The notes under the pieces: model-generated
The model's input: the letters and a program-made list of their open reading frames with translations, nothing else
Database searches by the model: none
What the model was told of the DNA's origin: nothing
DNA from: Nemertoderma westbladi
Lineage: Eukaryota > Animalia > Xenacoelomorpha
Direction: 5' to 3'
Assembly (NCBI GenBank): GCA_032718475.1
Contig: JAUCBJ010006769.1
Coordinates: 1 to 64,000, forward strand
DNA length: 64,000 nt
In this document: positions 6,381 through 32,982 of the stretch, piece after piece
Numbering within the stretch: position 1 is the stretch's first letter
How the letters are laid out: every line of letters begins with the position of its first letter
Program-made: the position numbers and the translations under genes

Positions 6381-6391
6381 TTTAAATTTAT

Positions 6392-7957: not shown

Positions 7958-7972
7958 TGGAGATGCGTTCGG

Positions 7973-10980: not shown

Positions 10981-12338
10981 CTTCAATAAAAAATCTACCA
11001 ATAAATATTAGGGCCTACATTTACTTAGGCCTAATGATTTCTTTTTTAATTTAATCTAATTAATCACCTTGGGCCTATTTATTTATTTTAAATTTTGGTT
11101 ACCGGTCCGGTACCTACCGGTAATCGAGTGTAATTATAAATAAATAAATTTAATGTACGGCGGAATAAATACATTGAAATATATTTATTACAGCAGTATT
11201 ATACAGTAGGCTACATTGTAGGCCTAGTTAAGAAAAAGAATATTGTCAAAGATATTCGCATTGTATGCATAAGTAGGATAGGCCAGGCCTATATCACAGT
11301 TAAAGTAAATAAAAAAAATAACTATGAAACAATATAATAATTAACAGTCCAATTCAACAAAAATAAGTGTACCAGTAACAACAATAAATCACAGTATAAC
11401 TCAATATGCTTCCAACTGCCCAATACATACCTCAACTTTCAAGCCAGCCCATCAAGAGGGGCATATTCCAGTAGCAGTCTTCAAATCCACATGTAGAAGA
11501 GAGTAGGCCAAGAACTATCTTAGAACAGTTACAATCAGATAACTATACCGCTACCGCGGTAGGAGTTATAGGATAACGCTCAACAGGATAAGCTAATAAG
11601 TTCAGAAGTTATAAGATGATAAATAATTATAAATGAGACAATAAAATATCACACAAATCACCAATCCAACTGCCCTATATATATACAGACACCGGCTCCT
11701 CTACCTCAAGCTAGGCCGTCCACCTTCCCCAATAAGGCACTGTGAATGGCTAATAATCTTACCACAGTATTAATGAGAGGCCGGTTTAACTAATGCAATT
11801 AATTGGCAGATTGGGTTTTAAACATAGAAATATCTCAACTGAACAACTAACACTAAAGACCACAACAACTGGACATGCTGGGAACACTACACTACACACC
11901 TTGATCACATGCTTATATAATAGCTTGTACGGACAGGCCGGTTTTCATTGGGGGGTCCATAGGGTGGAGACTGGTAGATTGGATTGGGATGTCAGATTGG
12001 AATGTGGTGTGGAATGTTAGGAATGTATATGAATCAGCAGTCCGGTAGAGGTTTACATATTTAAAAGAACTGCCGAAATATAAGTTATATGAGTATTATT
12101 TGTTATGATTTCTACCATTATATTCTTCCACGCAAAGTTCCTAGTCCTATAGGTCCAATCAAAACATTCTGTATATTGCCAATGGTTCAACGTAATCAAA
12201 GAGACGACGCTAGACACGCACGCAGCCAATCCCAGTGAAAAATGCACGCAAATAAGTAGTCATAAGTGATAATTCTAGAAAGGCTTTTCTGCGAATGTAG
12301 GCTATTGTGTAATTCATTTCAGTACCGGTCTGCCTAAC

Positions 12339-12566
12339 TGTCTGCACCAGGTGTCTGCACCAGGTGTCTGCACCAGGTGTCTGCACCAGGTGTCTGCACC
12401 AGGTGTCTGCACCAGGTGTCTGCACCAGGTGTCTGCACCAGGTGTCTGCACCAGGTGTCTGCACCAGGTGTCTGCACCAGGTGTCTGCACCAGGTGTCTG
12501 CACCAGGTGTCTGCACCAGTTGTCTGCACCAGGTGTCTGCACCAGGTGTCTGCACCAGGTGTCTGC
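12339..12566. repeat. 13-bp minisatellite (TGTCTGCACCAGG)n, about 17 copies
   Basis: Near-perfect tandem array read directly. Confidence 0.97.
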
Positions 12567-12689
12567 TTAACGTTTACACCCCAATTCCGCTTGGTTTATA
12601 TCTTGATTATCAATAAAATAGTAACGTGAAATATTTATGGAGCGTATATTTGAGAATGTTGAAATAATGCGTTTAGTAGTGTGACCAGC

Positions 12690-13370
12690 GTCTTGAATTT
12701 CCGCTTACCTCTAGCGGCAGACTGGAGAAATGCAGATCGACCACCTTCCTCAGAAAGACGCAGCATGTGCTCTAGTACATATGCCAATATTCACTTTAAA
12801 TAAATTAATATCAAGGAATTGGGGACAGTTATACATTTCGCCCTCTAGCGGCAGACTGGAGGACTCCAGACCGTTTACTGCCTACCAAAGACTCAGGCCG
12901 ACTTCTACTACATATCTGCTACGTTTCAGCTTGAACGGATCATAAATAACGAGATGGGAGAAAGATTTCACTTTCAAACATTTCGCCCTCTAGCGGCAGA
13001 CTGAAGAACTGCACACGGATTAGCCTTCAATTCAATTCAATTCCTTCTTTCAAAGTCACAGCTAATGGTCTAGTACATATCTGCCAAATTTCAGCATAAA
13101 TGGATTAAAAGCAAAGAAATGGGAGGACATTTAACGTTTAGACATGTGGCCCTCTAGCAGGAGACTATTGCTCTGATGGTGTCTGAAAGTCTCTCAAACG
13201 TCTCAACTTTAGCTCATATTGATACCTACAAATTTTCAACTTGGCAGCTTTAAATCCGACAAAGTTATTAGCATGTCAAAATCGTAACGACGACAACGAT
13301 TTCACTTTCAGACCTTTGGCCATCCAGTAAGCAACCGAGGGTGGACTCTCTATAGCCGAGGGGCACTTGT
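12690..13370 (+). mobile_element. Non-autonomous DNA element fragment (Helentron/DINE-like) with repeated CGCCCTCTAGCGGCAGACTG
   Basis: Internal subrepeats. 13050-13295 is a close copy of 32695-32940. Confidence 0.5.
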
Positions 13371-13468
13371 ATAATAACTAATAATCACGAACCCCATCCT
13401 CTTATAATATATAACTCTGTAGTAGTCAGTAGTAGTAGTAGTAATAGTAGTAGTAATAGTAGTAGTAG

Positions 13469-15569
13469 TGTTACGGTATATGGCGCTGTATCCATATTAT
13501 TAGTCATCATGCAGTATGCAATATTAGTCCGTTATACTGTACGTAATATTAGTCCGTTGTGCAGCATAATATTTTAGATAAGGCATAATGACGCAATGAT
13601 ATTTAGATAGGGAAATCGGAACGCCCATATATTTGCATCCATTTATTTTGTATAGTATGTAGCCCTACCTACGTAATTTTGTATTAGGTTATATGTAGAT
13701 AGTTCCAGGGTAAGTTTATTCGGACCCTGGATTCCGTGCTTGCTGATATTAGCTTTAGTAGGGCTAGCATATAGGGACGCCGTCCTGGCCATTCAGTAGC
13801 CAGAGACGTGAACCATTACCATATATGGTAATAATTTGAGCAATAGGGCTACAATCCGGCCTCCTTATTGGATTAACTGCTTCCAGGTTGGTCTAATGCT
13901 AGCATGGACTGGAGAGCCAATAGGAGAGCGATTGAGTCACCCTATTGCATCATCCCACCCGGATCACCTATAAATTGGCGGTGTGCCGGTAGAGCCTGTT
14001 ATCAATCTCTCACTCACATGACACATTCTCACTGCTGTTGAGCTGTCTCTAATTTTGTATTAGGATATCGTACTTTCTGCAATTTGCTAATTTGATTTTT
14101 TTCGTGAAATGATTTGCTAGTGCGATTACTTGCTTGTGTTTCTCAATAATTCCTTCGATTACTGCTAATTACAATTGAACTATGATTTCTACTCTTTGAT
14201 TAATGGTTCTATGTGATTCTTTTCTGCGCAATAATCCTAAGGGATTTCTGAGACTGTCAGACTTTGTGATTTGCATGCGCCGCTACGGTAGCTATTAGCA
14301 TAATGGAGGGCTAAGGTGCCAGTGGGCGATGGGCTCATCGGGGGGTTAGCGACGAAGGGAGTGCGGAGGATTCAAAAGCGGGCAACGCTGGCGGGGGTCA
14401 ACGTTGTGGTCGGGCAGTTTGGACTGTGGGTTGGAGACCGCTCGCCGGTACAGTAATTAGGGGGCTGATGATCCAAGGTTTTGTCTCTATTTAGTATTAG
14501 GGGGCAGGAATTGGGTTAGTTAGGAAGCCTAGATGTACCCGGGAGGGGCCTGCATACCTTACAGTAAGTAAGTAAGGGGGTAAGTACGTAAGTAAGTTGC
14601 GAATTATATAATTGCAGATTGTATAATTGCAAGTCGTGCTATTGTGATCCGTGATTGCTGACTCTGATTGATGTGTTACTAAAGTGTGCCTAAGATTACG
14701 AATGCTTAGATAGGCGCTCTTTTCCCTTTGATTGATTTCTATCTCTTAGTTTACTGTAAATAATTACTGATTAGGTCAAAGTAATACAGTATTTTAGGCT
14801 GTTACATATTTGTGACTGTAATTAATTAGTAAAATTAAGAATTAGTACGCAGCATAGCGGAGAGTAGCTAAGGTAATAATTAGAGTACCGTAAACTATTC
14901 ACGCTGAGCGGTTATTTGAATTAGCGGGCAATAAACTAGATCGCAATAGTTAGTACGCAAGACACTAGTAAGTTGCTGGCCTAAAGCCAGCTGCAGGCAA
15001 GTTTAGACCCAGAGCGGTAACACCTACGAAAGACATTGTACTGTATCATTTTGATTATTTTAAATATTCTCGCATTCACACATTCCGTTAGGGAACCCTC
15101 AGTATTCGCGATTAGAAAAGACGTAAGCATTGGCGTATTTCAGTAGTAAAATTAGGCGTAAGAATATACTCTGAGTGCAAAGCCCCTCGCACTCGTCTTA
15201 AGTAAGCTTAGGGAGCCGACTCGGGTTTATTGTTTTGGTTATTCCCGCGTGGCTCATAGATTCGAACAGTTAGCTCTCTATCGAGCGATCGGTAGAGAAA
15301 GGAACAAGCGATTTTGCAGGAGCTGTGTAAATTTAGTAAAATATATTAGCGGACGGCAGATTAGCGCCATCCAACGGTAAGTAGCGGTTTTGTATTTAGC
15401 AACCCTTACAATTTAGTAATAGCACACTCCTGATCCCCTTTACTTAACAGTAGAGCAGTCTTTGTGTCTTATTGGTTAGGCGAGAGCTCATTAGGTTGGC
15501 AGAGAGGTATACGGGTATTTGTCTGTTCAACAGTTCTGCTGTTAGTATAGGTGTCGCGGTTGTTTAACA
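13469..15569 (+). repeat. 5' LTR of element A
   Basis: Direct repeat of 27895-29995. Only two mismatches seen by eye (13644/28070 and 14329/28755). Confidence 0.98.
13860..14010 (+). promoter_or_regulatory. Putative LTR Pol II promoter (CCAAT boxes + TATA)
   Basis: ATTGG ~13867, AGCCAATAGG ~13915, CCTATAAA ~13967. The LTR of B has the same layout (CCAATAAG twice at 51083/51143, TATATAAAG ~51010, minus). Confidence 0.5.
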
Positions 15570-16812
15570 GTAAGGTATGTGTTATTGTCTGCTGTAGGCC
15601 TACCGCGTACAGTAGGACATAGAGTATATTCTTAGGCCGTGAAGATTTAGATTTACTGATACTTCGTAACAGTAAGGTATGTATTTTGTTTTTCTGTACT
15701 GCGTACAGTAAAGTAAGATTAAGATTACTGTATTAGGCACTGTACTGCGTACAGTAAGACATTAAGTATATTCTTTTAGGCTGATAGTTTAGATTACTGT
15801 ATTCACTGGCTGCGTACGATAGTACAGTAGTACATTAGGCTGATTGCTGTTACTGCGTACGGTAGAAGGACATTTGTTTGCCGTACCACACACACAGTAT
15901 CATTAGGCTGTTAGGTTGGTGTACTGTTTTACTTACTGTACTGCGTACAGTGGATGTACGATAGTGCGTTTTTGCTAATTGCGAATACAGCAGTTCCTTG
16001 GGCTTTAGGGCGAATTGTAATTAGTAAGTTTTTTGAAATTTTAGCTAGGTTTGCGAGAATTCAGTTTCGGTCAAAATTATTTTGTAAAATTCTAGAGTTT
16101 TGTACCGGTATGTTAGGTAACCGTTTAGTTATTTTATACCATCTGGAGATACATGGCAAGACGGAACTTCTGAGTTTGGGGTTCGTGTGGGTCTGCGGGT
16201 TCGGTTTGCAATCAGCGAAGGGACTGAATCTTTGGACGCGGACGTGGAATCTCACAGCAAACAAGGTTAGTTGTTCTGTTGGCACCACTGTGTTTGTGGA
16301 AGCAGTAAAAAATTACCGGTTGTTTAACTGCGAAGCTGAACTCAATTTATTAGTTAGGATATTTAGGTTTAGCCGGCCATGGTTTTTTGAATCGCTCAAG
16401 TTAGAGAGAGAGTTAGAGAGAGTCGCAACCCGAAGATGTAGCCACGCGCTAGTGGATACATATAATATTTGAAACTAAAATTACGTTGATTAGAGCTATA
16501 TATATATAAAATTAGAAATATTCAGGTGGCAAGTATATTTTGAATATTTTGTATTAGATTCAGAGTTATTTTGTGCTATACCGGTATTTAATATTATATA
16601 GTAGCTATATAATAATATTTTTGTTTAAATATTGTGCTAGTATTTGCTATAACTATATACCCCATTAAATTCACAATATTGCATTGCGAATTTATTTGAC
16701 ATTTGGACCAACTGATTATTTGACAAATAATTTGACCGTATTTCGGTTAAATTATAATTATATCTCGAACTTTTGCGAGATATTTTGCCGGAAGGCAAAC
16801 ATTATTTAGACT

Positions 16813-19800
16813 ATGAGTGTCTCAGACAAGGAGGCACTAGAGGACAGCTATGAGACGGCGGCTGGACCGCCGACTGACGATAGCGTAAACATTACTGTTG
16901 ATGACAATGCCGACTATGACGACGCAGCGAGCGACGCTGACGTAAGTGAACAGGAGGACGAGACAGTGACTAGTGAGGAAGAACAACAACCTCAAGTAAT
17001 AGTATTAGGATCCCCTACCGCTACTGTAAGAAAGGACTGCACAGCAGCCCGGACAGAGGTGAGTGATAGGGAGGGTAGTGTAGCAGAAGCGAGAGCCCGG
17101 AGCCCGGTTTCCAGACCTGTGGGTATGGTAAGTGCCGTGGTCCCAACGGCTGTTAGGAGTACCCGTAGTTCCCGAAATAATCCTTCAAGTCCACCGAGTG
17201 TGAGTCAGGTAAGCGAGAGAGAACTTGATATCGCGATAAAGAAGAAACTTCGCGCGCACGCCGGACATATAACTCGGACGACGGACAAGGTAAGGAAGAT
17301 GTTAGCCGACTCAGCGAACATCGGACGGGAAGGGTTAGTAGAGATTAGAAGAGGATATAACTCAGCGTTATTCAAGCAGACGGAGGAGCTTGCAGTCCTA
17401 GCGAAGAAGGCAGTAGAGTCTCAGTCGAGCGACGTGGCGACGAGGATTTACGACAGGGTTTTAGCAGCCTTGTTGGAGCACCGCGAGTTATCGGAGCGAT
17501 TCCGACGAGTTAGGACGGAGAACTGGCTGCTATGGGCATCACAAACGCAGGCGACTCAGGTGAGTGACGCAGATTTAAGAGACTTAGTGGAGCGGGAAGA
17601 GATCCAAGATAAGGAAGAGCGCCGGTATCAAAGGGAAGTTACTAGCTGGCTGATGCAGAATGGAGTGGTGGTGCCGGGCCAGGTGCTACCGACGACGGAG
17701 AACATCCAACAGAGGACGTTGACTCCACCCGACGATGCATCCAGAGACAGCGGCGATTCCCAGGTTAGTCACGCGCGAGGGAAGGTTATATGTGCTAGAT
17801 CCCTTGTTTCTCACAACTCGGCGGAGGAGAGAAGACGCCGACTAGACGAACAGCAGGCGGAAGTTTTGCGTGCACAGGAAGCACGGAAGGAAGCCGAGCG
17901 GGAACGGGAGCGCACACGTAAGTTAGACGCAAAGTTGCGAGAGTTGGAAGAAAAAGGTAAGCGTGAGCAAGCGGAACGCGAACAGGAAGAACGCGAACTT
18001 CAACTTCAACGCGAACAGGAAGAACGCGAACTTCAACTCCAACGCGAACGCGAAGAACGCGAACTCCAACTCCAACGCGAACGCGAAGAACGTGAACTTC
18101 AACTTCAACGCGAACGCGAACGGGAAGCTAAGGAATGCGAGCAAAGAAGACGCGAACTCCAACTCGAACGCGAGCGCAAGGAGCGCGAACTTGAGCGCGA
18201 GAGGGAGCGACGGGCGTTGTATGAAGAGAAGGCGCGTGTGGAAGAAGAGGGCGCAGCGAGACGAGCGAGGGAAGAAGAAGAACGTAAACTGGCGCAGTTG
18301 GAAAGTGCGAGATTAAGTTTAGAGAGCGAAGAACGGACTAGGAAGGCGAACGAAATCGCCGAGAAGGGGATGCGAATGATCGAAGAATGTGGGGCGAGTG
18401 TAGGGACAGAGTTGCGAGAACTGTTCGCACTGCAGAAGGCCGAACAGGAAGCGAGAACTCCGACCATACGCGAGTCGACGACGACCAGAATTCCTATACC
18501 CGGTCCAGCTATTACGAGTACACGGATCGCTAAACCGTTCTCTACATATCGCACGCCGGTTGGTATTGGTGCTTCACCCATCGCTCAGGATCCACGTCAT
18601 CGGAACACCGCACCACTATACACCGAACGCGAGAACGAAGAGTTTAGAGAAACTCCGACGGGCCAAGTATTTGGCGAACCGAACCCGCGGGTTTGGATTA
18701 CGCAGACGGAGCGCCGACCCAGTTCGACGGAGAACTTCCGGGTTAAACCGGAAGAGGGATCATATGAGAGACAGCGGATTACTCAGATAGAGCCGACTAT
18801 ACAACAGAACCCTAGCCAGGAATTTATTACGAGGGATGAGTTAAGTGCTAGTTTAGCGCAAGCTATATCGCCACACATCCAACCTATAACGGACATGCTT
18901 AGCAACCTACGGTTAAAGGAAGCAGCCCAGGTAAGAAGTAATTCAAATCCTAGCAGGCCTGAGTTAGATAAAGTCCAGCCTAGTCAACGAGTACGCATAT
19001 CGGAGGAAACTATACCACATAGACCTCAGGTAAGGACGCCTGTCCCGAATATTCATAATCCCAATTTCGAAAATTCGGCCGAGAAATTTATTCAGGATGC
19101 TTGGGTCAGGGCCTCGGCGCGCAAACCATCGCGAGCGCTAAGGACTGACACCGAGTCAAGCGATGAAGAGGAAGACATGAGACGTCAGAAGTCCCGAAAC
19201 TATAAGGAAAGAAGGACCGACGCGGAGCAGGTAAGTTGGAACCACCGGGAAAGGACCAGACTTAACAACCCTGCGGAACTAAACCATTTGTTAACCCGGA
19301 ACGACGCAACCCTTAGAGACATAGGTAAGTTTGCTGCTAGGCAAGGACTGCCGACGCAACAACCCCAGAAGTTTATGGGTAACCATAAGCATTGGAGGAC
19401 CTTCAAAACCTATGTCGACGAGCAGCTAACCAACAGCACCTTTACTCCCAACGAGAAGTTCAACTATTTGCTTCAGATGCTCCATCGAGAACCTAGAGCC
19501 ATTGCTGATAACTTCGTCGGCAATGAGAGGGCATTTGAGCTAGCGATGAAGACACTTAGTGACATCTACGGGAATAAAACCAAGATGGCGCAGTCGATAG
19601 TAGAAGACTTGGGTAAGGGCGGAAGGATTACAACTCCGTTAGAGCTGTTGAACTTAGCGAACGCTATTTCGAACGCATTGGACATCTTGAGGACGGTAAA
19701 TCTACCTCATCATGGTGATCACGCCGAAGTTTTAAAGAGCGTAATAAGACGTCTAAACATGCGTTACCGACAGAAATGGCGCAAATTAGAGAATAAGTTG

Positions 19801-22800
19801 GAGGGCCAAGGTAAAGTATTGACACTTCAGCATATTCATGACATGATAGCCACAGACGCAGTAGCAGAGATGAAATCAAACTTCTCAGAAGAGAATATGA
19901 GAGAGTCTAAACCTGTTACCGGTAAGTCTATGGTAAGTTTTGACGACGACAGGACCACTGTGACATTTAACTCAGTAGACAGATATAATTCGAGTACCCC
20001 AGCCTTTAGATCAGACTCGCGAGTATGGTCAGGTGAGCGGTTAGATAGACCTAGGTTAAAGCAACAGGAGTTGCCGGATGGATTTGCAGGTTGCCAATAC
20101 TGCTTACTAAAGGAGGTAAGATCTGACGACCATAAGTTAGATAGTTGCAGACGGTTCAAAGAATTAAATTCGGAACAGAGAAGAGTTCAAGTGCGGACGT
20201 TGGACACCTGTTGGGCATGTCTTGCGCCAGGTCATGTACGGCGGCAGTGCCCGAACAGCAAGGACGGATGCATGGAATGCGGCAGACTACATCACAAGTT
20301 GCTACATGCGGATTTCCACACCCCAACGGACCGTTACTTACAGCGAAATCCTCACAGGAAGGGGAGCAAAGAACCCGTATCGATAAGGAGGAATACGTAC
20401 ACTGGCATCCAGGACGATGGTTACCAACCAGGTTCGTCGGACGAGGATGGCGAGTCGAGCGCGAGAGAAGTGACCTGCCAAGGTTTCACCGCGGATAGTT
20501 CATCGACCAGCGCGCGGACGTATTTATCATCGGCCACGTCGGAAATATTTAGCGTGATTCCGGTGAAACTCACTGGCGATAAGGGATCGAAGCGAATATA
20601 TGTGATGTTGGACACTGCGTCCACATTATCCTATATCGACGAGGAAGTGGCGAGAGCCGTTTCTAGCTTCCAGGACGCCGAGGAGATCCAAATAGAGTTG
20701 AAGTCTATGCATGGGGTAGGAGACCTCAATGGACACAGAATTTCGGTGGAACTAGATTCCCTACTTCCGAGAGACCAACACACTCGACAAGAATGGAAAG
20801 CTTTGCCATTGGACGGATTTAAGTGTCTAGCTATGAAGGGATTCGGCAGGCAGTTAGGTAAGGTGCCGCCGATGAGTCCCATAGCACAGGAGTATTTTGA
20901 CAAGCTCAGGATACCCAGACACCAGGTAGGTTATAGGAATGTTTCTATGTTGATTGGTGCAGAACAGCTGATCGCACACCAAATATGGGAAACGAGACCA
21001 GCTGAGCCGCATGTCAATGGACCACATGCCCATAGGACTATACTAGGTTGGTATACAAGAGTACCCATGTCTTATGAGTTTACAGGTGGCGACAAGCCAA
21101 CAAACAGATACGACGAATTACAGCCTATAATTCAACCACCGTTAGTAGAACCACCAGACATAGACGAGTTTAGGAGAACCTGTATTGACCACTATAGTGA
21201 CTTTAGCGAGTCGGACGAGGAGTTGATTCCCGATAATGTTAGGTTGTCGGAACCACTTCATAATGACCGGACAGATAGTGAACCCGAGGACTACTGTTAT
21301 CAGACCCGTGGGTCTGGTTCAACGGTCCACGCTACCTATTTGACTAACGTTTTGACTTATACAGACATAGTGGAGGGTCAAGTGGCTAAATATCGAGACC
21401 TAGACATTTTCCAATACAGTGAGGAGGAATTACAGAAGGAATTGATACGCCAGGACCTCGAGACAGGAGCCAGAACCGTCGAATGGCTGGATAGGGACGC
21501 AATGGAACCCGGTGGATATGACCTAGCCATGTCTACTGATGAGAAACGGTCGCTGGAGATGATGGAAGACACCATACGTCTGCTACCGACTGGACATTTT
21601 GAAGTTGGAATGTTGTGGCGTCGACAACCACCTAAGTTGGAGAACAACTACAGCTTAGCCTTGAAAAGATTAAACGGAGTAAGGGCTCGGTTGTTGAAGA
21701 ATCCGGACATTAGGGAGAAGTATTGCGCCCAGATCAACAACTATTTCGCCAAGGGATTTGCTGGGAAGGTAGAGGACCCTGACTTAGTGACAGACCAGAC
21801 TTATTACCTTCCACACCACTATGTGACTCACCCTGACAAGCCAGACAAAGTCCGAGTAGTCAACGACTGCGCAGCAGTCTATAGAGGTATGTCCCTGAAT
21901 TCAGAGTTGATGGATGGTCCCAACCTGAACAATTATTTGATAGGAATACTGTTGCGTTTTAGACAGCGGCGATTCGCATTTACTTGTGACATCGAGGCGA
22001 TGTTCCACCAGGTAAGAGCCTGTAAGGCAGACCAGGATAGCCTTCGATTTCTCTGGTTTGAGAATGAAGACTTATCCGGCCCAGTGGTTACATACCAAAT
22101 GTACGTTAGGATATTTGGCGCCCGCGATAGTCCAAATGGCACGCTGTTTGTTCTAAAGAAAACGGCAACAGCCCAGATTGGTAAGTATCCAGTAGAAGTA
22201 ATCGAGTCCATCTTGAGAAACTTCTATATGGACGACGGATTGGTGTCCAAGGACACGGCGGAACAAGCCATAGAAGTGGCTCACGGCCTGCAAGAGTGCT
22301 TGGCTACAGGGGGTTTTCCTCTGACCAAGTTCACTACGAACTCGGAGGCCCTATTAGAGTCGTTCCCGGTAAAAGATCGCGGGAGCGGAGACATAGAATT
22401 GGGGGTAGAACCAATCCCCATGGCGCGAGTACTGGGACTCGCTTGGAACCCGAACTCAGATAAGTTCCAGGTAAGAGTTAGATTTGAGCCCAGTAGCCCA
22501 GACAAAGTTTTGACAAAGAGAATTTGCTTATCGACTTTAAGTAGACTATTTGACCCGATGAACTTTATCAGTCCGGTTATATTACAGGCACGAGCGTGCA
22601 TGAGGAAAATTTGGTTGTCCGACGTAGAGTGGGACGAACCAATATCTCCTATACATGCAAAGCAGTGGAGGGAGTGGGAAGCCGAGTTGCATCTATTGAA
22701 AAACATAGATGTACCCCGTTCCTACTTTCCGAATCAGCTGGTATTTCCAACTGATTTAGAGCTGCACCTATTTAGTGACGCAAGTGACACCGGCTTTGGT

Positions 22801-25200
22801 ATGGTAGCCTACCTTCGCCGAGAGGTAAGTCAGGACAAATTTGAGACGGCCTTTGTGACTTCTAGATCAAAGACAATGCCGGTCAAATACATGACTGTCC
22901 CTCGTGCAGAGTTACAGGCGGCTGTAGTTTCGGTCGAGGTAAGTAAGCAAATAACTGAGGAGTTAGACACGACATTGACCTTATTCTATTGGACGGACGC
23001 ATCCTTGGTGTTAGTATACATTGCGGCCGACAATATTGCACTAAAGACATTTGTGGCCAACAGACGCGCTCAGATCGTTGACTTTTCGACGAAGGAACAA
23101 TGGAGACATTGTCCGGGAGTGTTAAACCCGGCCGACATAACTTCGAGAGGTGCAATGCCGGCGGAATTCTGTCAGGAAGAGTCGCAGGAGTTTTGGTTGC
23201 ATGGACCTGATTTTCTAACGAGGACGCAGGAACATTGGCCAGAGCGACTAAAGATTGTGACCAATCCGATGCCTGAAGATGCAGAAGTCAAAGTGGAGAA
23301 AGTCTCTAAGTCAAAGTCTAAAGCCAAACTTAAGTCATTGGAGCGGCCTGAAGAGTCATTGGAGCGGCCTGAAGAGTCATTGGAGCGGCCCGGAGACCTG
23401 TCAGACCAACAGACTTACGTGACTACTAGGTCCGGAAGGGTAAGTTATGACATCAAACCACCCTTACAGACTAAACCGGAGTCACAATTGGTAAGTGACG
23501 GACAGAAAATGACCGACACAATGGAGTCTTTGGTTTCCAAACCTGCGGGTTTGGATTCGAAACTTCCATTAGTTAGCGGACAACCGTCGCTGGCATTAGA
23601 GCCATGTAGTATTTATGACAAATTACTAAATTCGTCTGCCTCTTGGCTGACAATTTGTAAAAGAACTGCGTGGTTAAGCCGATACATTTTGTACCTTTGT
23701 TTAAAACATTCGAAACATTTGAGAGAACCATTGAGCACCAATAGTGAGCGAATTCGGAAATTGAAACAACCTCTGACAGAGGATGAGATTGATCAAGCGG
23801 AATTAAAGCATTTGAAACATTATCAAATGTGTGCCTTCCCTAAAGAATTCCATCTATTATCGGCTCAACGACCAGTTCTCTATAAACCCCTTAGAAAATG
23901 GAGTCCATTAATCCATAAGGGTTTAATTTGTCATAGATCGAGAATCCAGACTGTCGACATAAACTCACAGTTTCGGTTCCCAGTGATAATCCCTAGTCAC
24001 CCAATAGAATTGCAAAGAGCGATTCTATGGGATATACACAAGAGGTTGCATCACGCGGGAAAGTTACACTGTTTGTCGGCAGCGAGACAGCGATTCATTC
24101 TATTGCAGCCAAGCAGGGCAGTCGGCACTATGTACGACGCCTGTCTGGTTTGCAAGAGGGTGAACGCCAGAGTATTGGAACAGGAGATGGCTGAACTCCC
24201 GGAAGCGAGAGTGCAGGCATATAACCCACCCTTTACGAACACAGGGGTGGATTGTTTTGGTCCGATTGAAGCAAAGAGTGGACGGCTGACCCATAAGCGA
24301 TGGGGTCTGCTACTGACATGCATGGCTAGTAGAGCCATACACATCGAGCGTGTGGCAGACATGTCGACCAAATCTCTGCTCCTGGCCTTGAAGAGATTTA
24401 TGGCCAGGAGAGGACTAGTAAAGGCGTTCTACTCTGACAAGGGTACAAACTTTGTCGGAGGGAATAGCGAGTTGAACGCGGCTCATAAAGCAGCACAGAA
24501 TAAGGAAATTTCTGCAGCACTTTTGCCGCAACGAGTAGAATGGAGATTTAATACTCCAGAAAGTCCTTGGAGAGGAGGAAGTTGGGAGCGTTTAGTTCGC
24601 TCTGTAAAGCAGGCCATTGCCAAAACATTGCCTGTAAACAAACAACTTACCGACGACGAACTGGTCACAGCTTTCATTGAAATCGAGCATACCCTAAACT
24701 CGAGGCCGATAGCTATGTTGCCAGACGGTGTTGCATTAACGCCGAATCATTTGCTAATGCAGAGTCCAGCATTTCTTGTGCCGGCATCAGAACCCATTAG
24801 TGCCGACCTATATAGTCGTAAAAGCTGGAAAGTAACACAGTTTGTGGCGTACACATTCTGGGAATATTGGCGGGAATACTATCTTCCCACCATATCCACC
24901 AGAACAAAGTGGTACAAAACGGTTCGGAGTCTCCAAAGGGGAGATTACGTATTGATAACCGAACCTATTGTCAAGAGAAAGTATTGGGAGACGGGAGTGA
25001 TCTTGCACACACACCCAGACGTGCAAAACATAGTGCGCACAGTCACTGTGAAAATTAGGTGCAAGTGTCCGCACCCAAAAAAGTGTAAAACTAATGGTTT
25101 ACACACCTTGGACCGACCGGTCCAAGATATCGTGTTATTAGAGGAGACACGTATCGAGACGGGAGATTATAGTTTGTCTCCTGCCTCAAAACAGAATTAG
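16813..25200 (+). CDS. BEL/Pao gag-pol polyprotein (Gag with triple Zn knuckle, aspartic protease, RT, RNase H, integrase)
   Basis: CWACLAPGHVRRQC and CMECGRLHHKLLH; MLDTAS; YLPHH...DIEAMFHQV...FYMDD; FSDAS; NPADITSRG; HHAG..CLVC; DCFGP, SDKGTNF, WERLV. Confidence 0.98.
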   Translation: MSVSDKEALEDSYETAAGPPTDDSVNITVDDNADYDDAASDADVSEQEDETVTSEEEQQPQVIVLGSPTATVRKDCTAARTEVSDREGSVAEARARSPVSRPVGMVSAVVPTAVRSTRSSRNNPSSPPSVSQVSERELDIAIKKKLRAHAGHITRTTDKVRKMLADSANIGREGLVEIRRGYNSALFKQTEELAVLAKKAVESQSSDVATRIYDRVLAALLEHRELSERFRRVRTENWLLWASQTQATQVSDADLRDLVEREEIQDKEERRYQREVTSWLMQNGVVVPGQVLPTTENIQQRTLTPPDDASRDSGDSQVSHARGKVICARSLVSHNSAEERRRRLDEQQAEVLRAQEARKEAERERERTRKLDAKLRELEEKGKREQAEREQEERELQLQREQEERELQLQREREERELQLQREREERELQLQREREREAKECEQRRRELQLERERKERELERERERRALYEEKARVEEEGAARRAREEEERKLAQLESARLSLESEERTRKANEIAEKGMRMIEECGASVGTELRELFALQKAEQEARTPTIRESTTTRIPIPGPAITSTRIAKPFSTYRTPVGIGASPIAQDPRHRNTAPLYTERENEEFRETPTGQVFGEPNPRVWITQTERRPSSTENFRVKPEEGSYERQRITQIEPTIQQNPSQEFITRDELSASLAQAISPHIQPITDMLSNLRLKEAAQVRSNSNPSRPELDKVQPSQRVRISEETIPHRPQVRTPVPNIHNPNFENSAEKFIQDAWVRASARKPSRALRTDTESSDEEEDMRRQKSRNYKERRTDAEQVSWNHRERTRLNNPAELNHLLTRNDATLRDIGKFAARQGLPTQQPQKFMGNHKHWRTFKTYVDEQLTNSTFTPNEKFNYLLQMLHREPRAIADNFVGNERAFELAMKTLSDIYGNKTKMAQSIVEDLGKGGRITTPLELLNLANAISNALDILRTVNLPHHGDHAEVLKSVIRRLNMRYRQKWRKLENKLEGQGKVLTLQHIHDMIATDAVAEMKSNFSEENMRESKPVTGKSMVSFDDDRTTVTFNSVDRYNSSTPAFRSDSRVWSGERLDRPRLKQQELPDGFAGCQYCLLKEVRSDDHKLDSCRRFKELNSEQRRVQVRTLDTCWACLAPGHVRRQCPNSKDGCMECGRLHHKLLHADFHTPTDRYLQRNPHRKGSKEPVSIRRNTYTGIQDDGYQPGSSDEDGESSAREVTCQGFTADSSSTSARTYLSSATSEIFSVIPVKLTGDKGSKRIYVMLDTASTLSYIDEEVARAVSSFQDAEEIQIELKSMHGVGDLNGHRISVELDSLLPRDQHTRQEWKALPLDGFKCLAMKGFGRQLGKVPPMSPIAQEYFDKLRIPRHQVGYRNVSMLIGAEQLIAHQIWETRPAEPHVNGPHAHRTILGWYTRVPMSYEFTGGDKPTNRYDELQPIIQPPLVEPPDIDEFRRTCIDHYSDFSESDEELIPDNVRLSEPLHNDRTDSEPEDYCYQTRGSGSTVHATYLTNVLTYTDIVEGQVAKYRDLDIFQYSEEELQKELIRQDLETGARTVEWLDRDAMEPGGYDLAMSTDEKRSLEMMEDTIRLLPTGHFEVGMLWRRQPPKLENNYSLALKRLNGVRARLLKNPDIREKYCAQINNYFAKGFAGKVEDPDLVTDQTYYLPHHYVTHPDKPDKVRVVNDCAAVYRGMSLNSELMDGPNLNNYLIGILLRFRQRRFAFTCDIEAMFHQVRACKADQDSLRFLWFENEDLSGPVVTYQMYVRIFGARDSPNGTLFVLKKTATAQIGKYPVEVIESILRNFYMDDGLVSKDTAEQAIEVAHGLQECLATGGFPLTKFTTNSEALLESFPVKDRGSGDIELGVEPIPMARVLGLAWNPNSDKFQVRVRFEPSSPDKVLTKRICLSTLSRLFDPMNFISPVILQARACMRKIWLSDVEWDEPISPIHAKQWREWEAELHLLKNIDVPRSYFPNQLVFPTDLELHLFSDASDTGFGMVAYLRREVSQDKFETAFVTSRSKTMPVKYMTVPRAELQAAVVSVEVSKQITEELDTTLTLFYWTDASLVLVYIAADNIALKTFVANRRAQIVDFSTKEQWRHCPGVLNPADITSRGAMPAEFCQEESQEFWLHGPDFLTRTQEHWPERLKIVTNPMPEDAEVKVEKVSKSKSKAKLKSLERPEESLERPEESLERPGDLSDQQTYVTTRSGRVSYDIKPPLQTKPESQLVSDGQKMTDTMESLVSKPAGLDSKLPLVSGQPSLALEPCSIYDKLLNSSASWLTICKRTAWLSRYILYLCLKHSKHLREPLSTNSERIRKLKQPLTEDEIDQAELKHLKHYQMCAFPKEFHLLSAQRPVLYKPLRKWSPLIHKGLICHRSRIQTVDINSQFRFPVIIPSHPIELQRAILWDIHKRLHHAGKLHCLSAARQRFILLQPSRAVGTMYDACLVCKRVNARVLEQEMAELPEARVQAYNPPFTNTGVDCFGPIEAKSGRLTHKRWGLLLTCMASRAIHIERVADMSTKSLLLALKRFMARRGLVKAFYSDKGTNFVGGNSELNAAHKAAQNKEISAALLPQRVEWRFNTPESPWRGGSWERLVRSVKQAIAKTLPVNKQLTDDELVTAFIEIEHTLNSRPIAMLPDGVALTPNHLLMQSPAFLVPASEPISADLYSRKSWKVTQFVAYTFWEYWREYYLPTISTRTKWYKTVRSLQRGDYVLITEPIVKRKYWETGVILHTHPDVQNIVRTVTVKIRCKCPHPKKCKTNGLHTLDRPVQDIVLLEETRIETGDYSLSPASKQN

Positions 25201-25939
25201 TGTTGGACGCAACTCACTTCGTATGCATTCCTCGTATGCAAATACAAGGAAATGCATAGGAGCGGGGTTGTGGTGATTTGCGTTGAGTTTTGTCTGGTGG
25301 GTATCAAAACAAAATTTTATTTTCAAAATTTTTGGAAAATTAGAAAATTTTAAAAATTAGAAGTGAACCCAAGACAATTCCAGACGCTGTGTATAGACGC
25401 GTTTTAGAATTCGTCTATAGATAAACAGTAATTTGAAAAGTCGTGAAGCCTGGAAAATAGCATTTAGAAACCATGGTGACGGCTATATTACGTAGGAGTG
25501 TAAATTGAGTTTAGCAACTTCCACAGATTGGTGCCAACAGTGCAACTAAGGTGCTAAAGGTTAGTAGCACCAGAGGCGTACATGGACCCCACTCAGTAGT
25601 TTGCAGGATGTGTGATGTTCGATTATCAAACCTGTGGGTTTGGTATAGTCGAGTATTGTGGCTATAGTCCTTTCTAACTACTGTAGTTTAGTAACGAGTA
25701 ATGGGAGTAGTTTGGGCATCAAAAAGTGAGTTGGTCACGGCCAGTTTATCTCCAAACTTTTTGCGCTATGCATGGGAATAGGTTAGAGAATAGTTAGTTA
25801 GGAAGAGACGGGATCTAGAGAGTCGAACCTGAACTGCTGGAAGGCGGGGGGGTTCGGGAGGTCTGTCCTTCGGCGACATCTAACTGATTACCCACAGTGT
25901 AATTGGTTTGCGTAACGGAACACTTATTGGGATATATAT

Positions 25940-27024
25940 GTATATACGCGGGGCGTAATAGAGAAGGATATTAGAGCGCAACCGCGCAGGGGATTTACTG
26001 CCAGAGAGGAGGCGGAGTTACCATTCGCGCGACCGGGATGTAAAGATTCGAACGTTTACTACCATGGGCGGTCGGTGATGGAGCTAAATGGGAAATACAA
26101 ACCCACGATTCCCGACCGACTAGACGAGCAACATCCAGAACCGATATTAACGCGTTGTCAAGCTCACCAGTTCCTTAGATATAACGAGGGAGGTTACCCG
26201 ATGAGCGACCCGATGATCAGTATCGACTTCGGCGAAAGCGACCTCCGAGACCCATTACGCCGACCGTTACGACTTTAGATCCGTATACAGAGATTAAACC
26301 TGTTCGACACCCGCTTTGATAGACACGGCGGCGGCCATTTCGCTATACCGAGCCTATAAAGACCTAGAGGCGCGGCGCGAAGCGGTACGGGACTCGAGTT
26401 CCTGGACCACGTTCACTTCGCTTCACCAGGAGAGGAAGGTCACGCCTGAGTATCCAGGCGAGATTCGCGCCGTCCATCCGTCTACTAACTATACCCACGA
26501 TCCGCGGTTTATACGATATTTACTCCAAATTATTTCGGGAAGTTTCGACGAACGCATTATTAAGCCCGAATATGTCCAATCCTTTATATATCATCGTCGC
26601 TCTGATATATACGTCTAGATTTATTACCCAGCGCACAATTGGCGGCCTAAGGAGACTCGTTTGGGGTCATTGACCTCTGAACGAGTGGAGGATCAGGACC
26701 GCCGCGCCCACAGCGACAACAGCCGGAGCTCACAGCTCGCGGCAAGTACCAGAAGGAGGAGTCCTTGGCAAGCGTCAAGCCAAGGACGAGCAGTTCTATT
26801 CGACGGTTGAAGAAAAGGAGTTGGCGGAGGCGCCCACAGGGACACGGCAAATGGGACGAGGCCGAGGGAGGAGCACCAGTCAGGAGATAGTCGGTGCCCA
26901 GGGAACGTCGTCGCCGGTTCCGGGAAGTGACGCCTCAAGGACGCCGTCAACAGAGTCTACAGGGGGTAGACTGGTGTATCTGGAGAAGGGAGCGAGCCCG
27001 AGAGACCCAGGAGCTAGCCGATGA
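25940..27024 (+). pseudogene. Decayed accessory ORF of element A, homologous to 52230-54544
   Basis: Homologous blocks PRRGFTAREEAELPF, PEPILTRCQAHQFLRYNEGGYPMSDP, SLYRAYK, HDPRFIRYLLQI and GRGRGRST, split by stops and frameshifts. ATA lies where B has ATG. Confidence 0.8.
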
Positions 27025-27887
27025 GACTATAATATCACGGAGCGACAAACTCTAGACATATACATCATCGTCGCTCTGATGTATATCGTAGGTTTTGATC
27101 AATCATTCGACTGGACTCATATACACTAGTCGTATCCATATTTTAGAATTTTATTTTCGAAGGCCGAAAAATATTGAAAGGAAATACTTTATTTTGTAGT
27201 CCGATTGGAAATAGTAAATACTTTAACTATATTTGATTTTGTGTATATGACTTTATTTGCTCTAAAGTTTATTGAAAGAGGCAAAGGAAGTGATTGGGGA
27301 GACAAACCCGCGGGTTTGGCTTACTCCTATCACTTACCTGAGCAATCATCAAACCAAGATGATTTGCGCTTTTATAAGAAATTAAGTAAAGTCCGAAAAT
27401 GAAAGAAATTATTACGTATTTTATATTTAGTTTGATTATCGGCCTTTAATGCAATTTAGTTAAAAATTTAGCCTCAAATACGTTTATATTTAGTTTATCT
27501 TGTTAATGTTGATCGTTAATTTGAGATGGGAAATGGGGGACATTGTCCTAGCCATGTTCCATTTCAATAGGTAGACAGTCAATTTGTAAATAAATAAAGG
27601 AAGTAATATTTTTGTAATTTAATTTTGTATGTAGTAATCATTATGTAGAACGAATGAGAAACAGTATTTTGTAAATTTAATTTGTATGTAATAATCGTTA
27701 ACAGTGAGAGAGATAATATTTTGTAATTTTAATTTGTATGTAAATTCATTATGCAATATCTATGGCAATATTTGTAAATAGTAGAATTATTATGTTATTT
27801 AGATTGGTTGGAAGAAATTTATTTTGTTTTGTATACATCACCTTATACTCTTCTACAATTGGAGGGAAACATTGTATGATTTCCCTT

Positions 27888-27894
27888 GGAGCGG
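27888..27894 (+). other. Plus-strand priming tract (GGAGCGG) of element A
   Basis: Directly abuts the 3' LTR TG. The same heptamer abuts the LTR of B (51421-51427). Confidence 0.7.
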
Positions 27895-29995
27895 TGTTAC
27901 GGTATATGGCGCTGTATCCATATTATTAGTCATCATGCAGTATGCAATATTAGTCCGTTATACTGTACGTAATATTAGTCCGTTGTGCAGCATAATATTT
28001 TAGATAAGGCATAATGACGCAATGATATTTAGATAGGGAAATCGGAACGCCCATATATTTGCATCCATTCATTTTGTATAGTATGTAGCCCTACCTACGT
28101 AATTTTGTATTAGGTTATATGTAGATAGTTCCAGGGTAAGTTTATTCGGACCCTGGATTCCGTGCTTGCTGATATTAGCTTTAGTAGGGCTAGCATATAG
28201 GGACGCCGTCCTGGCCATTCAGTAGCCAGAGACGTGAACCATTACCATATATGGTAATAATTTGAGCAATAGGGCTACAATCCGGCCTCCTTATTGGATT
28301 AACTGCTTCCAGGTTGGTCTAATGCTAGCATGGACTGGAGAGCCAATAGGAGAGCGATTGAGTCACCCTATTGCATCATCCCACCCGGATCACCTATAAA
28401 TTGGCGGTGTGCCGGTAGAGCCTGTTATCAATCTCTCACTCACATGACACATTCTCACTGCTGTTGAGCTGTCTCTAATTTTGTATTAGGATATCGTACT
28501 TTCTGCAATTTGCTAATTTGATTTTTTTCGTGAAATGATTTGCTAGTGCGATTACTTGCTTGTGTTTCTCAATAATTCCTTCGATTACTGCTAATTACAA
28601 TTGAACTATGATTTCTACTCTTTGATTAATGGTTCTATGTGATTCTTTTCTGCGCAATAATCCTAAGGGATTTCTGAGACTGTCAGACTTTGTGATTTGC
28701 ATGCGCCGCTACGGTAGCTATTAGCATAATGGAGGGCTAAGGTGCCAGTGGGCGGTGGGCTCATCGGGGGGTTAGCGACGAAGGGAGTGCGGAGGATTCA
28801 AAAGCGGGCAACGCTGGCGGGGGTCAACGTTGTGGTCGGGCAGTTTGGACTGTGGGTTGGAGACCGCTCGCCGGTACAGTAATTAGGGGGCTGATGATCC
28901 AAGGTTTTGTCTCTATTTAGTATTAGGGGGCAGGAATTGGGTTAGTTAGGAAGCCTAGATGTACCCGGGAGGGGCCTGCATACCTTACAGTAAGTAAGTA
29001 AGGGGGTAAGTACGTAAGTAAGTTGCGAATTATATAATTGCAGATTGTATAATTGCAAGTCGTGCTATTGTGATCCGTGATTGCTGACTCTGATTGATGT
29101 GTTACTAAAGTGTGCCTAAGATTACGAATGCTTAGATAGGCGCTCTTTTCCCTTTGATTGATTTCTATCTCTTAGTTTACTGTAAATAATTACTGATTAG
29201 GTCAAAGTAATACAGTATTTTAGGCTGTTACATATTTGTGACTGTAATTAATTAGTAAAATTAAGAATTAGTACGCAGCATAGCGGAGAGTAGCTAAGGT
29301 AATAATTAGAGTACCGTAAACTATTCACGCTGAGCGGTTATTTGAATTAGCGGGCAATAAACTAGATCGCAATAGTTAGTACGCAAGACACTAGTAAGTT
29401 GCTGGCCTAAAGCCAGCTGCAGGCAAGTTTAGACCCAGAGCGGTAACACCTACGAAAGACATTGTACTGTATCATTTTGATTATTTTAAATATTCTCGCA
29501 TTCACACATTCCGTTAGGGAACCCTCAGTATTCGCGATTAGAAAAGACGTAAGCATTGGCGTATTTCAGTAGTAAAATTAGGCGTAAGAATATACTCTGA
29601 GTGCAAAGCCCCTCGCACTCGTCTTAAGTAAGCTTAGGGAGCCGACTCGGGTTTATTGTTTTGGTTATTCCCGCGTGGCTCATAGATTCGAACAGTTAGC
29701 TCTCTATCGAGCGATCGGTAGAGAAAGGAACAAGCGATTTTGCAGGAGCTGTGTAAATTTAGTAAAATATATTAGCGGACGGCAGATTAGCGCCATCCAA
29801 CGGTAAGTAGCGGTTTTGTATTTAGCAACCCTTACAATTTAGTAATAGCACACTCCTGATCCCCTTTACTTAACAGTAGAGCAGTCTTTGTGTCTTATTG
29901 GTTAGGCGAGAGCTCATTAGGTTGGCAGAGAGGTATACGGGTATTTGTCTGTTCAACAGTTCTGCTGTTAGTATAGGTGTCGCGGTTGTTTAACA
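27895..29995 (+). repeat. 3' LTR of element A
   Basis: Direct repeat of the 5' LTR, followed by the TSD. Confidence 0.98.
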
Positions 29996-31019
29996 AGTAG
30001 TATAAGTAGTAAGTAATAGTAAAGGAGATCGGTTTAAACCAAAGTGATAAAGTAACATTATTATATAACATAATCATATAGACAAAGTAGAATAAGATAC
30101 AGATTCATAATTATTTTATCAAACTCATGTACTACTTACTTCAATGTGCCAATTGTAATAATAATTAAACATATTATTCCGATTAATCTGCGTTTGGCCC
30201 TATAAGATATTATACTGAAGTGTTTTATATCAATATATCCATGCGAGTAAACAAGAAGTGAAGTAAATGTTTATTATTATAGTTTTAGAAATTGAATGAT
30301 ATACCCAAGATAGTGAAATAGATAATATACAAGAAATTGCCATTTGATCAGATATATCAAAACGGCATCTTTAGTATAATACCGTAATAGTATCAATTAA
30401 CTCTGTTATACAATGTAAATATACTAAATCTATTTATAAATATATTATAAGCCCTACATTGTATATTTCTCCTACAGGTAGACAATGTAGATGTTAAAAC
30501 TTGATATAATTTGGTATAATGTATAACATATTACAAATAAGACTGAGGCAGCTAAACTATATTGCAAAGAAATCAAATATCCTAAAGTAATATACTAGAC
30601 CCTCCCTCCACCCTATAAATAGTGTTCACCACCTACCCCACCCACCGCCCTTATTACTTCATAATAATGAAAGATAGTACTGGCGCTCCGGTCACTCCGT
30701 TCCCTCCGCTGGGGGGGTTAAGTTGTAGGTTTTGACACTATGCAAAATCCGAGCACAGAGTTAGAAGCGCATTGGATAGGCGAACATTTCTTGCAGTGAA
30801 AGTATTTCCATACCTATTATAGTTTTCAAGAGAGTCAGACATGAGTAGCTAAAATTTAAATTTTTTCGGTAAAGTCTGATTTCACCGGTACCTGTCATCC
30901 GAAATATGGATTGTGATATATAGTTAAATGCGGGTCCACTAACTGTACATTCACATTTTTTCAAGAAAAAAATTCGATCAAGGGTTTTCGAAATATTTTC
31001 GAATTACCGGAAGCAGACT

Positions 31020-32260: not shown

Positions 32261-32930
32261 TGATCGCTCCAAAAAAAGATATTTGAATGTAAACCCATGT
32301 GCTGCCTATCGATTGGCGCCGGTCCCAAGTCCGTAGCATTAGCGGTTCTGGACTTATACGCATAGCAACGTGGTTGCTAGGGAAGCGGACTTTTTGACTC
32401 AAATTAGTCCTAGACGGAGAACCGTAGACTTTTTTAACACATTATGTATGGCGAAAAGTCTTCTAGATAAATTTTGGGGGGGGGGGGGGGTCTAGGAACA
32501 TCCTATTGTTCGTTTTCGCTTAGTTGCTGAGATCCTCTCGTCCCACAAATTCCAGGATTCTATAAAGGCATTCTGCTGGACTAGTTCCGTGGCCGGAATA
32601 GTGTTCGGTGTTCTGCGAACAGAGAACCTAATCGGTTTTGGGCCCTGACCGTCTAGCGGCAGACTGGAGAACTGCAGATGGATTCGCCTCCTTTGAAAGT
32701 CACAGCTAATGGTCTAATACATATCTGCCAAGTTTCAGCTTAAACGGATTAAAAGCAAAGAAATGGGAGGGCATTTAATGTTTAGACATGTGGCCCTCTA
32801 GCGGGAGACCATTGCACTGATGGTGTCTGAAAGTCTCTCAAAAATCTCAACTTTTGCTCATATTGATACCTACAAATTTTCAACTTGGCAGCTTTAAATC
32901 CGACAAAGTTATTAGCATGTCAAAATCGTA

Positions 32931-32982
<52 letters not shown>

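Follow-up and report, generated by a model that had tools for sequence, protein, structure and literature searches.

The stretch of DNA analysed here, 64,000 nucleotides of a contig of Nemertoderma westbladi (JAUCBJ010006769.1, positions 1 to 64,000; hereafter the window), holds two related long terminal repeat (LTR) retrotransposons of the BEL/Pao type, elements A and B, each with its own family of short stem-loops built around a YGYG loop. Element A (13469-29995, + strand; intact, 16.5 kb) contains seven copies of an 18-nt CCAAACC-YGYG-GGTTTGG stem-loop on the + strand, which is its coding strand, and element B, on the opposite strand, contains 10-11 sites with another stem. The signal is selected, sense-strand and family-specific, and it is repeated along the internal part of both elements. 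Our leading explanation, which we put forward tentatively and hold to be somewhat short of probable, is that the seven YGYG stem-loops of A would act in cis on the genomic RNA, as sites bound by the element's own two-knuckle Gag for packaging.

The earlier note on this DNA had reported six dispersed hairpins in A, and all of them are present. When both strands of the window were searched with the pattern CCRAACCYGYGGGTTYGG, allowing at most 3 mismatches, 10 matches were found at 6 places, against 0.18 expected (mean of 100 shuffles, maximum 2). The core ACCYGYGGGT occurs exactly six times on the + strand of the window, each time at one of these six A sites. A looser core, ACYYGYGRG, together with the covariance model described below, added a seventh site at 20011-20028, within the largest gap, that the earlier note had missed. 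Its positions were exact for the sites at 17111, 18679 and 25626, while those given as 21301, 23536 and 27304 were off by one or two bases and are corrected here to 21300, 23537 and 27302.

All seven sites are on the + strand. Hairpin 1 (17111-17128, CCAGACC UGUG GGUAUGG), located in the N-terminal extension of Gag in codon phase 1, has a G/A mismatch in the middle of its stem (-4.4 kcal/mol, 24.6 bits). Hairpin 2 (18679-18696, CCGAACC CGCG GGUUUGG; -8.8 kcal/mol) has one G·U pair and falls in codon phase 0, as does hairpin 2b, the additional site at 20011 (UCAGACU CGCG AGUAUGG; 26.0 bits), which lies between the DUF1759 domain and the zinc knuckles and has a U-A closing pair as in element B. 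The linker before the reverse transcriptase (RT) contains hairpin 3 (21300-21317, UCAGACC CGUG GGUCUGG; codon phase 2, -9.0 kcal/mol, pair probability ~1), in which the fourth pair has changed from A-U to G-C and a U·G stands at the base. Hairpin 4 (23537-23554, CCAAACC UGCG GGUUUGG; codon phase 1, -9.9 kcal/mol, pair probability 1.0) occupies the linker between RNase H and integrase. The remaining two, found by pattern, fold and model alike, are in the 3' region beyond the stop codon: hairpin 5 (25626-25643, UCAAACC UGUG GGUUUGG) and hairpin 6 (27302-27319, ACAAACC CGCG GGUUUGG), the latter 576 nt upstream of the 3' LTR. Folded with ViennaRNA, the six sites other than 20011 range from -4.4 to -9.9 kcal/mol, and in a 218-nt context four of these six have a pair probability of about 1, with 0.65 for hairpin 2. 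A consensus-like 5' splice site, GGTAAGT (17126-17132), overlaps the 3' arm of hairpin 1 and extends just beyond it; this may be chance.

The gaps between the seven sites range from 1.29 to 2.24 kb, in agreement with the earlier estimate of roughly one site every 2 kb, and are more even than those of seven random points (P ~0.001 for both the smallest gap and the coefficient of variation, with 20012 taken as the start of hairpin 2b). The first site is 1542 nt from the 5' LTR. The five coding sites, at residues 101, 624, 1068, 1497 and 2243, are all outside Pfam domains, and occupy all three codon phases (1, 0, 0, 2 and 1); the peptides that they specify (SRPVGM, PNPRVW, SDSRVW, QTRGS and KPAGL) bear no relation to one another. 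The mixture of phases and peptides places the signal in the nucleic acid and not in the protein, and rules out a peptide motif as the cause of the sites. The sequences flanking the sites are likewise unrelated to each other. The sites had been described as lying in linkers and untranslated regions, which fits the five coding sites outside domains but is less apt for the supposed 3' untranslated region, where a decayed open reading frame (ORF) remnant was found.

With filters off and E up to 10, the covariance model gave no match in 13469-16812 (5' LTR and 5' leader) or in 27895-29995 (3' LTR), so that the LTRs are free of sites, as had been stated before. The sites are also absent from the remainder of the window outside A and B, 35 kb from which the genome background was judged. 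Over the whole window the model, built from 17 sites and run with filters off, placed every match with E <0.05 on the sense strand of A (+) or of B (-), the best match elsewhere having E ~1, and its sense scores exceeded its antisense scores. Since the training sites match by construction, the information of the model lies in the absence of matches elsewhere. An equal frequency of the motif outside the element, which the earlier note had named as fatal to its idea, was not seen in the 35 kb of the window outside A and B.

The second family was noticed in a listing of all tetraloop hairpins of the window, as a recurring hairpin at 51.7-63.2 kb. It belongs to element B (51720-63247, - strand, towards the window end; sites spanning 51720-63142), identified by protein comparison, pattern and model. 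In the sense direction the B sites read GG-AAGACU-YGYG-AGCCUW-YC, that is, a stem GGAAGACU-YGYG-AGCCUW with the loop as in A, and the corresponding pattern had 23 matches on both strands compared to 3.9 expected. Canonical sites are at 63127, 61387, 61306, 61225, 57425, 54908, 53756, 52192 and 51720 (+ coordinates of - strand sites), and those at 61387, 61306 and 61225 belong to a tandem repeat of 81 nt, each unit of which carries one site. In a variant at 57557 (-) the arms have traded places while the loop is kept (UAGGCU UGCG AGUCUA). Core-only matches at 60255, 54402 and 53134 and a weak model match at 53624, all on the - strand, are weak candidates that may be decayed sites.

Some of the sites occupy matching places in the two elements, whose proteins are 48%, 37% and 46% identical in three aligned blocks. 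The B site at 56784-56797 (-; GGACC CGUG GGCCC), recognised by alignment, is the positional homologue of A hairpin 4, and P-A/V-G is encoded at both. The variant at 57557 sits 231 nt past the end of an aligned block, and the same block ends 231 nt before A hairpin 3. At the B place homologous to A 20011 (58780-58860, -), the arms UCAGAC ... GUAU are present around a centre of 9 nt of other sequence instead of U-CGCG-A; because the same arms surround a different centre, the comparison suggests that this site may have changed in place in one lineage rather than by insertion.

We aligned 17 sites, seven from A and ten from B, with the middle tandem copy excluded and two identical rows counted once. 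Standard pairs are formed by 80% of the cells (65% in shuffles), and the covariation score of 0.519 (0.255 in shuffles) was reached by none of 500 shuffles, every slid register scoring lower. The covariation is mostly the difference between A and B and thus represents only a handful of independent events: C-G gives way to U-A at the closing pair, and pairs 2, 3, 4 and 6 of the nine-pair model (in which the closing pair is number 9) also change on both sides. All 17 sites have guanines at loop positions 2 and 4 (G2 and G4) and C-G as the second pair, and the features common to A and B sites amount to AC-Y, the YGYG loop and R-G.

The loops also have a direction. In 12 of the 17 sites the loop is asymmetric (non-palindromic), and it is invariably the sense strand that reads YGYG; over the 17 sites the sense strand has 16 T at the Y positions and no A at the G positions. 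A and B are on opposite chromosome strands, yet the polarity follows the sense strand of each. Sporadic non-Watson-Crick pairs on the sense strand are G·U 11 times and A·C once. Substitutions among sister copies in run X1 include 68 C>T and 82 G>A, and with no excess of C>T a substitution bias does not mimic this sense polarity. Sense-strand loops in elements facing opposite ways argue against a symmetric DNA site, and the two-fold symmetry with no strand preference that a double-stranded palindrome should have is not seen, either in the 12 loops asymmetric in one orientation or in the arms of B, which differ in a fixed orientation.

Sister copies of A retain the two sites that could be resolved, hairpins 2 and 6, and the absence from sister copies that would have spoken against the earlier note was not seen at either. 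None of the 40 variable places listed, out of 536 in a first contig alignment over the internal region, is in a hairpin, which proves little with so small a part listed. A second alignment covered 18570-18805 with all variant rows of four runs at a share threshold of 3%. It contains 18 variable places, 16 of them in 18602-18672 and the others at 18698 and 18704, and none of the 18 positions of hairpin 2 varies among contigs with a share of at least 3% in the four runs. In 18602-18704 outside hairpin 2, 18 of 85 positions vary, and the chance of an 18-nt gap is ~0.014. Single contigs of X5 and of X4, which is another species label, differ at 14 and 13 places, respectively, none of them in hairpin 2. 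Contigs of X3, X4 and X5 diverge from the window at 26396 and continue with GGTA and a perfect CCAAACC CGCG GGTTTGG, with C at the first base where hairpin 6 of the window has A; in the X4 contigs the sequence downstream of the perfect copy is unlike the flank of hairpin 6. Hairpin 6 therefore recurs in a differently built 3' region, under two species labels.

Wider searches gave no counterpart of the signal. Rfam had no match at the gathering score over the window, and relaxing the threshold to E 5 brought up nothing but weak, unrelated matches away from the sites. A metagenome scan with the exact hairpin pattern returned 75 stretches in 74 loci, none of which encodes a relative of the polyprotein (tblastn) or has clustered sites in a retroelement; without relatives or clustering, these are chance or unrelated matches. 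In a literature search of titles and abstracts, sites of this kind were not found described for BEL/Pao elements or for any other LTR retrotransposons.

The earlier note had proposed a distributed recognition code, made of multiple packaging signals or of protein-binding palindromes. A distributed recognition signal is backed by enrichment, even spacing, frame independence, confinement to the internal region, sister copies and the second family. A symmetric DNA palindrome fits poorly, and the packaging option appears to fit the anatomy of the elements. If the sites serve packaging, the active form would be the genomic RNA rather than single-stranded DNA, and the reader would be the pair of adjacent Gag zinc knuckles, encoded in A at 20209-20307 (+; CWACLAPGHVRRQC and CMECGRLHHKLLH, from a motif scan of the translation), with one invariant loop guanine, G2 or G4, per knuckle. 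The same scan detected the pair in both elements, as CX2CX4HX4C followed by CX2CX4HX3H in A and CX2CX4HX4H in B, and both elements thus combine a tetraloop with exposed guanines and a Gag with CCHC-type knuckles, as expected of a psi-type hairpin. Binding of Gag at the sites may select, nucleate or organise the RNA for packaging. The family-specific stems would confer family specificity, and a defective element such as B would be served only by its own helper. B has no RT/RNase H and yet keeps, even multiplies, its sites, which fits cis-acting signals. Stems that differ between the families and are uniform within each would be explained more readily by a reader that the element encodes, and that co-evolves with them, than by a host factor.

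The choice of Gag as putative reader follows the geometry of the nucleocapsid protein (NC) of human immunodeficiency virus 1 (HIV-1), with which the invariant G2 and G4 are consistent: in the cited passages of PMC7599994, each of two knuckles binds one exposed guanine, those bound being the second and fourth bases of the GGAG and GGUG loops. The A and B sites resemble psi SL2 (GGUG) and SL3 (GGAG) of HIV-1 in having a tetraloop with G2 and G4 in an element whose Gag has two adjacent CCHC-type knuckles, but loop positions 1 and 3 are pyrimidines here, and the sites are distributed along the whole RNA, with none in the A 5' leader, whereas retroviral psi hairpins lie in the 5' leader beside the primer-binding and dimer sites. 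In their distribution they are closer to the dispersed packaging signals of MS2, satellite tobacco necrosis virus, parechovirus, enterovirus-E and hepatitis B virus (HBV, with RGAG loops), in which a loop motif is read by the capsid protein, according to the cited parts of PMC6281560, PMC7612645, PMC5431903, PMC7793301 and PMC4751978. As in these viruses, many short stem-loops with a common loop motif (7 in A, 10-11 in B) are spread over coding and non-coding parts of the strand that would be packaged. The differences are that the carrier is an LTR retrotransposon, that there are only 7-11 sites, and that the stem is near-invariant within a family instead of degenerate.

Several results weigh against Gag-bound packaging hairpins on the sense strand. 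The packaging signals known from retroviruses and Ty elements lie close together in the 5' leader, and no model match was found in that of A (15570-16812), so that the sites are not located as a psi signal would be. Near-identical stems within a family are not needed by a protein that reads the loop; they point to RNA-RNA pairing, stem-specific reading or homogenisation. The conservation test is complete for one hairpin only, hairpin 2, and the 100 nt downstream of it are equally invariant; over the whole stretch (18 of 218 positions variable) the chance of an 18-nt gap rises to ~0.2 because 18705-18805 is invariant too. Hairpin 1 is weak, with a pair probability of 0.18 in its 218-nt context.

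The folding of B is the most direct difficulty. On the sense strand, nine of the ten aligned rows have A·C as the third pair from the loop and the tenth has G·U, and in ViennaRNA predictions nine of ten folded sites give weak sense-strand folds of -0.4 to -2.0 kcal/mol, with -4.2 kcal/mol at 57557, 0.0 and no predicted structure at 63127, and most of the hairpins not formed in their sequence context. Antisense folds are stronger, at -3.5 to -4.9 kcal/mol in eight of ten, with -2.5 and -2.8 kcal/mol at 57557 and 52192, respectively. The sense folds are weak because of the A·C at the third pair, where the antisense strand has G·U. The predicted folds and the fixed A·C count against a simple sense-strand hairpin in B. 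As wobble pairs, A·C and G·U are isosteric, and we infer that the arm exchange at 57557 is compatible with a need for a wobble at the third pair. The unpaired A opposite C is a context favoured by ADAR, but the 5' G is disfavoured. In the sites generally the 5' arm always reads R-R-A-C-Y, which would fit the consensus for N6-methyladenosine, though this is loose enough to be matched by chance. A reading of the sites as RUNX-like YGYGGT fails on the extra G.

The distribution among other BEL/Pao elements is also narrow. A pol profile made from 14 proteins led to six loci (L075-L080) in records titled as bacterial metagenome-assembled genomes, which encode BEL/Pao pol proteins with 33-41% identity to A and are likely to be animal DNA binned by mistake among bacterial genomes. 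Most of an element is present in four of them, L076 to L079 (33-36% identity to A). These have no YGYG hairpin of at least 5 bp on either strand and no model match better than E 0.45, a further point against the proposal. They also have no other recurring dispersed hairpin, their repeats being LTR copies, tandem arrays and, in L077, a stretch of 86 nt duplicated exactly. Two 18-nt hairpins of L077 with identical sequences fall within this duplication and so do not count as independent sites. A and B have the gene set and Pfam domains of other BEL/Pao elements, from which they differ in an N-terminal Gag extension of ~850 amino acids, common to both, and in the hairpins that L076-L079 lack. Because the four other loci have no such hairpins, the trait belongs to the A/B lineage and not to BEL/Pao elements in general.

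Family-uniform stems fit RNA-RNA pairing equally well, and pairing is therefore kept as the main rival, unlikely though we consider it. Any site would pair with any other, zipping two genomic RNAs together (multi-point dimer linkage) or condensing one, and the arms would keep A and B apart. The whole A 18-mer is self-complementary once wobble is allowed, YGYG is exactly the tetranucleotide set that pairs mutually through C-G and U·G, and the stem sequence is conserved within each family beyond the demands of pairing, as this model requires and a loop-reading protein does not. The sites may share with the dimerisation palindromes of Ty1 and the dimer initiation sites of retroviruses a self-complementary sequence on genomic RNA that could pair between two copies, and palindromes drive the dimerisation of Ty1 RNA and retroviral genomes in the cited passages of PMC6844567 and PMC5454406. 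However, B sites carry fixed mismatches, and a B duplex would contain two A·C mismatches, often along with two of A·A. Known dimer sites are few, 6-nt loop palindromes of the 5' leader that join by loop-loop kissing, while A and B have 7-11 whole-hairpin palindromes over 10 kb; full kissing is beyond a 4-nt loop, and the model would have to invoke an extended duplex driven by a chaperone. A host RNA-binding protein that aids the unspliced RNA in nuclear export, localisation, stability or escape from surveillance, like constitutive transport elements or accessory-protein-dependent export, is a further candidate to which we give little weight. LTR retroelements need special export of unspliced RNA (PMC10309623, in the part cited), the sites are on the sense strand, and the AC-Y, YGYG and R-G shared by A and B could be the target of a single factor, but a host factor would not account for each family retaining its own stem throughout; the export elements known occur once or twice, within the 3' region, unlike the 7-11 dispersed sites here, and Rfam gave no match.

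Two further explanations place the function outside the RNA or deny it. Double-stranded DNA palindromes could bind a dimeric protein, of the host (for example a CGCG-centred reader) or of the element, and act on the chromatin or transcription of the integrated copy. The near-perfect inverted repeats of the arms suit such a dimer site, which would also be expected to show arm covariation, and the B-type core CTCGCGAG resembles what we take to be a vertebrate promoter motif, TCTCGCGAGA. This is nevertheless quite unlikely in view of the oriented loops in elements on opposite strands, the 11 G·U to one A·C on the sense strand and the fixed, oriented difference between the two arms of B; a repressor site, moreover, would be lost and not kept, and even spacing through coding sequence is unusual for enhancers. 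Least probable of all, and in our judgement very improbable, is a short palindromic module that has no function for the element and was spread or homogenised by template switching of the reverse transcriptase or by gene conversion. The nearly identical stems, the length of 18 nt (six codons, so that an insertion keeps the frame) and the one site per unit of the 81-nt tandem repeat in B are what it would predict. It is opposed by the even spacing, by a loop rule kept across two families with 37-48% identity, by sites at matching places in A and B, by the apparent change in place rather than insertion at the homologue of A 20011, and by the invariance of hairpin 2 within a variable stretch.

Element A is a BEL/Pao LTR retrotransposon, as its domain set indicates. 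Its two 2.1-kb LTRs (13469-15569 and 27895-29995, +), with TG...CA ends read in the sequence, were located by self-BLAST (13468-15572 against 27894-29999, 99.86% identity over 2106 nt) and are flanked by the target-site duplication AGTAG, which sits within a GTA microsatellite and is present just upstream of the 5' LTR and again after the 3' LTR. Between them a single gag-pol ORF of ~2795 codons from the ATG (16813-25200, +), of BEL/Pao type, matches the Pfam families DUF1759, Peptidase_A17 (Pao-type region), Integrase_H2C2 and DUF5641. The A family is very abundant in the host: 20430 contigs of run X1 and 8659 of X3 align to the internal region. Among the 120 matches listed of 264, the closest full-length proteins have ~41% identity and 1546-2534 amino acids (~2795 in A), and where the source is named it is a marine invertebrate or a fish. 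A viral contig scan with the A pol protein found no relative, and a protein search with short fragments of the N-terminal 760 residues of A found no match.

In element B, DUF1759 was detected in 60308-63247 and integrase with DUF5641 in 55211-59320. Gag and pol are in separate frames, and there is no counterpart of A residues 1420-2214, the RT/RNase H part; conversely, ~1.2 kb of B between 60314 and 59125 has no counterpart in A. Two ORFs lie 3' of pol on the - strand, at 52230-53717 and 53597-54664, neither with a Pfam match above the cut-off. The first, of 495 amino acids, has three CCHC zinc knuckles and an RG-rich tail, and its product is possibly another reader of the hairpins, though A keeps only decayed remnants of 3' ORFs. 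Those in the A 3' region include 25937-26212, which matches the 355-amino-acid 3' ORF of B.

Other features were recorded in and around A. Its 5' leader, upstream of gag, contains a 172-codon ORF (15954-16472, +) with no Pfam match and no hairpin site. A 257-nt direct repeat with 94% identity brackets the element (13043-13299 and 32687-32943, ~170 nt before and 2.7 kb after it), so that A may have inserted into or next to another repeat. Just upstream is a tandem array with a 13-nt unit (12287-12618). Farther upstream, a Helitron-like ORF with Helitron_like_N and PIF1 helicase domains (921-7972, -) and a DUF6570 ORF (7907-9175) adjoin an array of ~25 copies of a 51-nt tandem repeat. Between A and B, an inverted repeat with perfect 17-bp arms separated by 4 nt (TGACACCCAATGACACC CATA ...; 38210-38247) and a 10-bp inverted repeat (49363-49386) have the word ATTGGGTGTC in common and may be the ends or a hairpin of another mobile element.

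To our knowledge, the way in which RNA is chosen for packaging by LTR retrotransposons other than Ty1, Ty3 and retroviruses has hardly been described, and a search of titles and abstracts found no publication on it for BEL/Pao elements. The signal reported here is repeated along the whole RNA and differs between two neighbouring families while the loop is the same in both; being short, countable and defined by sequence, it would make the question of packaging choice directly testable. A bolder form of the Gag proposal, which we regard as possible but doubtful, would see in the hairpins a family bar code: 7-11 near-identical hairpins of the NGNG type (YGYG), placed 1.3-2.2 kb apart between gag and the 3' end in any frame, would be read by a two-knuckle Gag that selects the RNA and organises it in the particle, with co-evolving stems keeping families and their defective riders apart. 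These would be the first dispersed packaging signals in a reverse-transcribing mobile element. If true, retroelements would join RNA viruses and HBV, the carriers of dispersed packaging signals described to date, and the stems would provide a sequence marker that tells which defective elements ride on which helpers.

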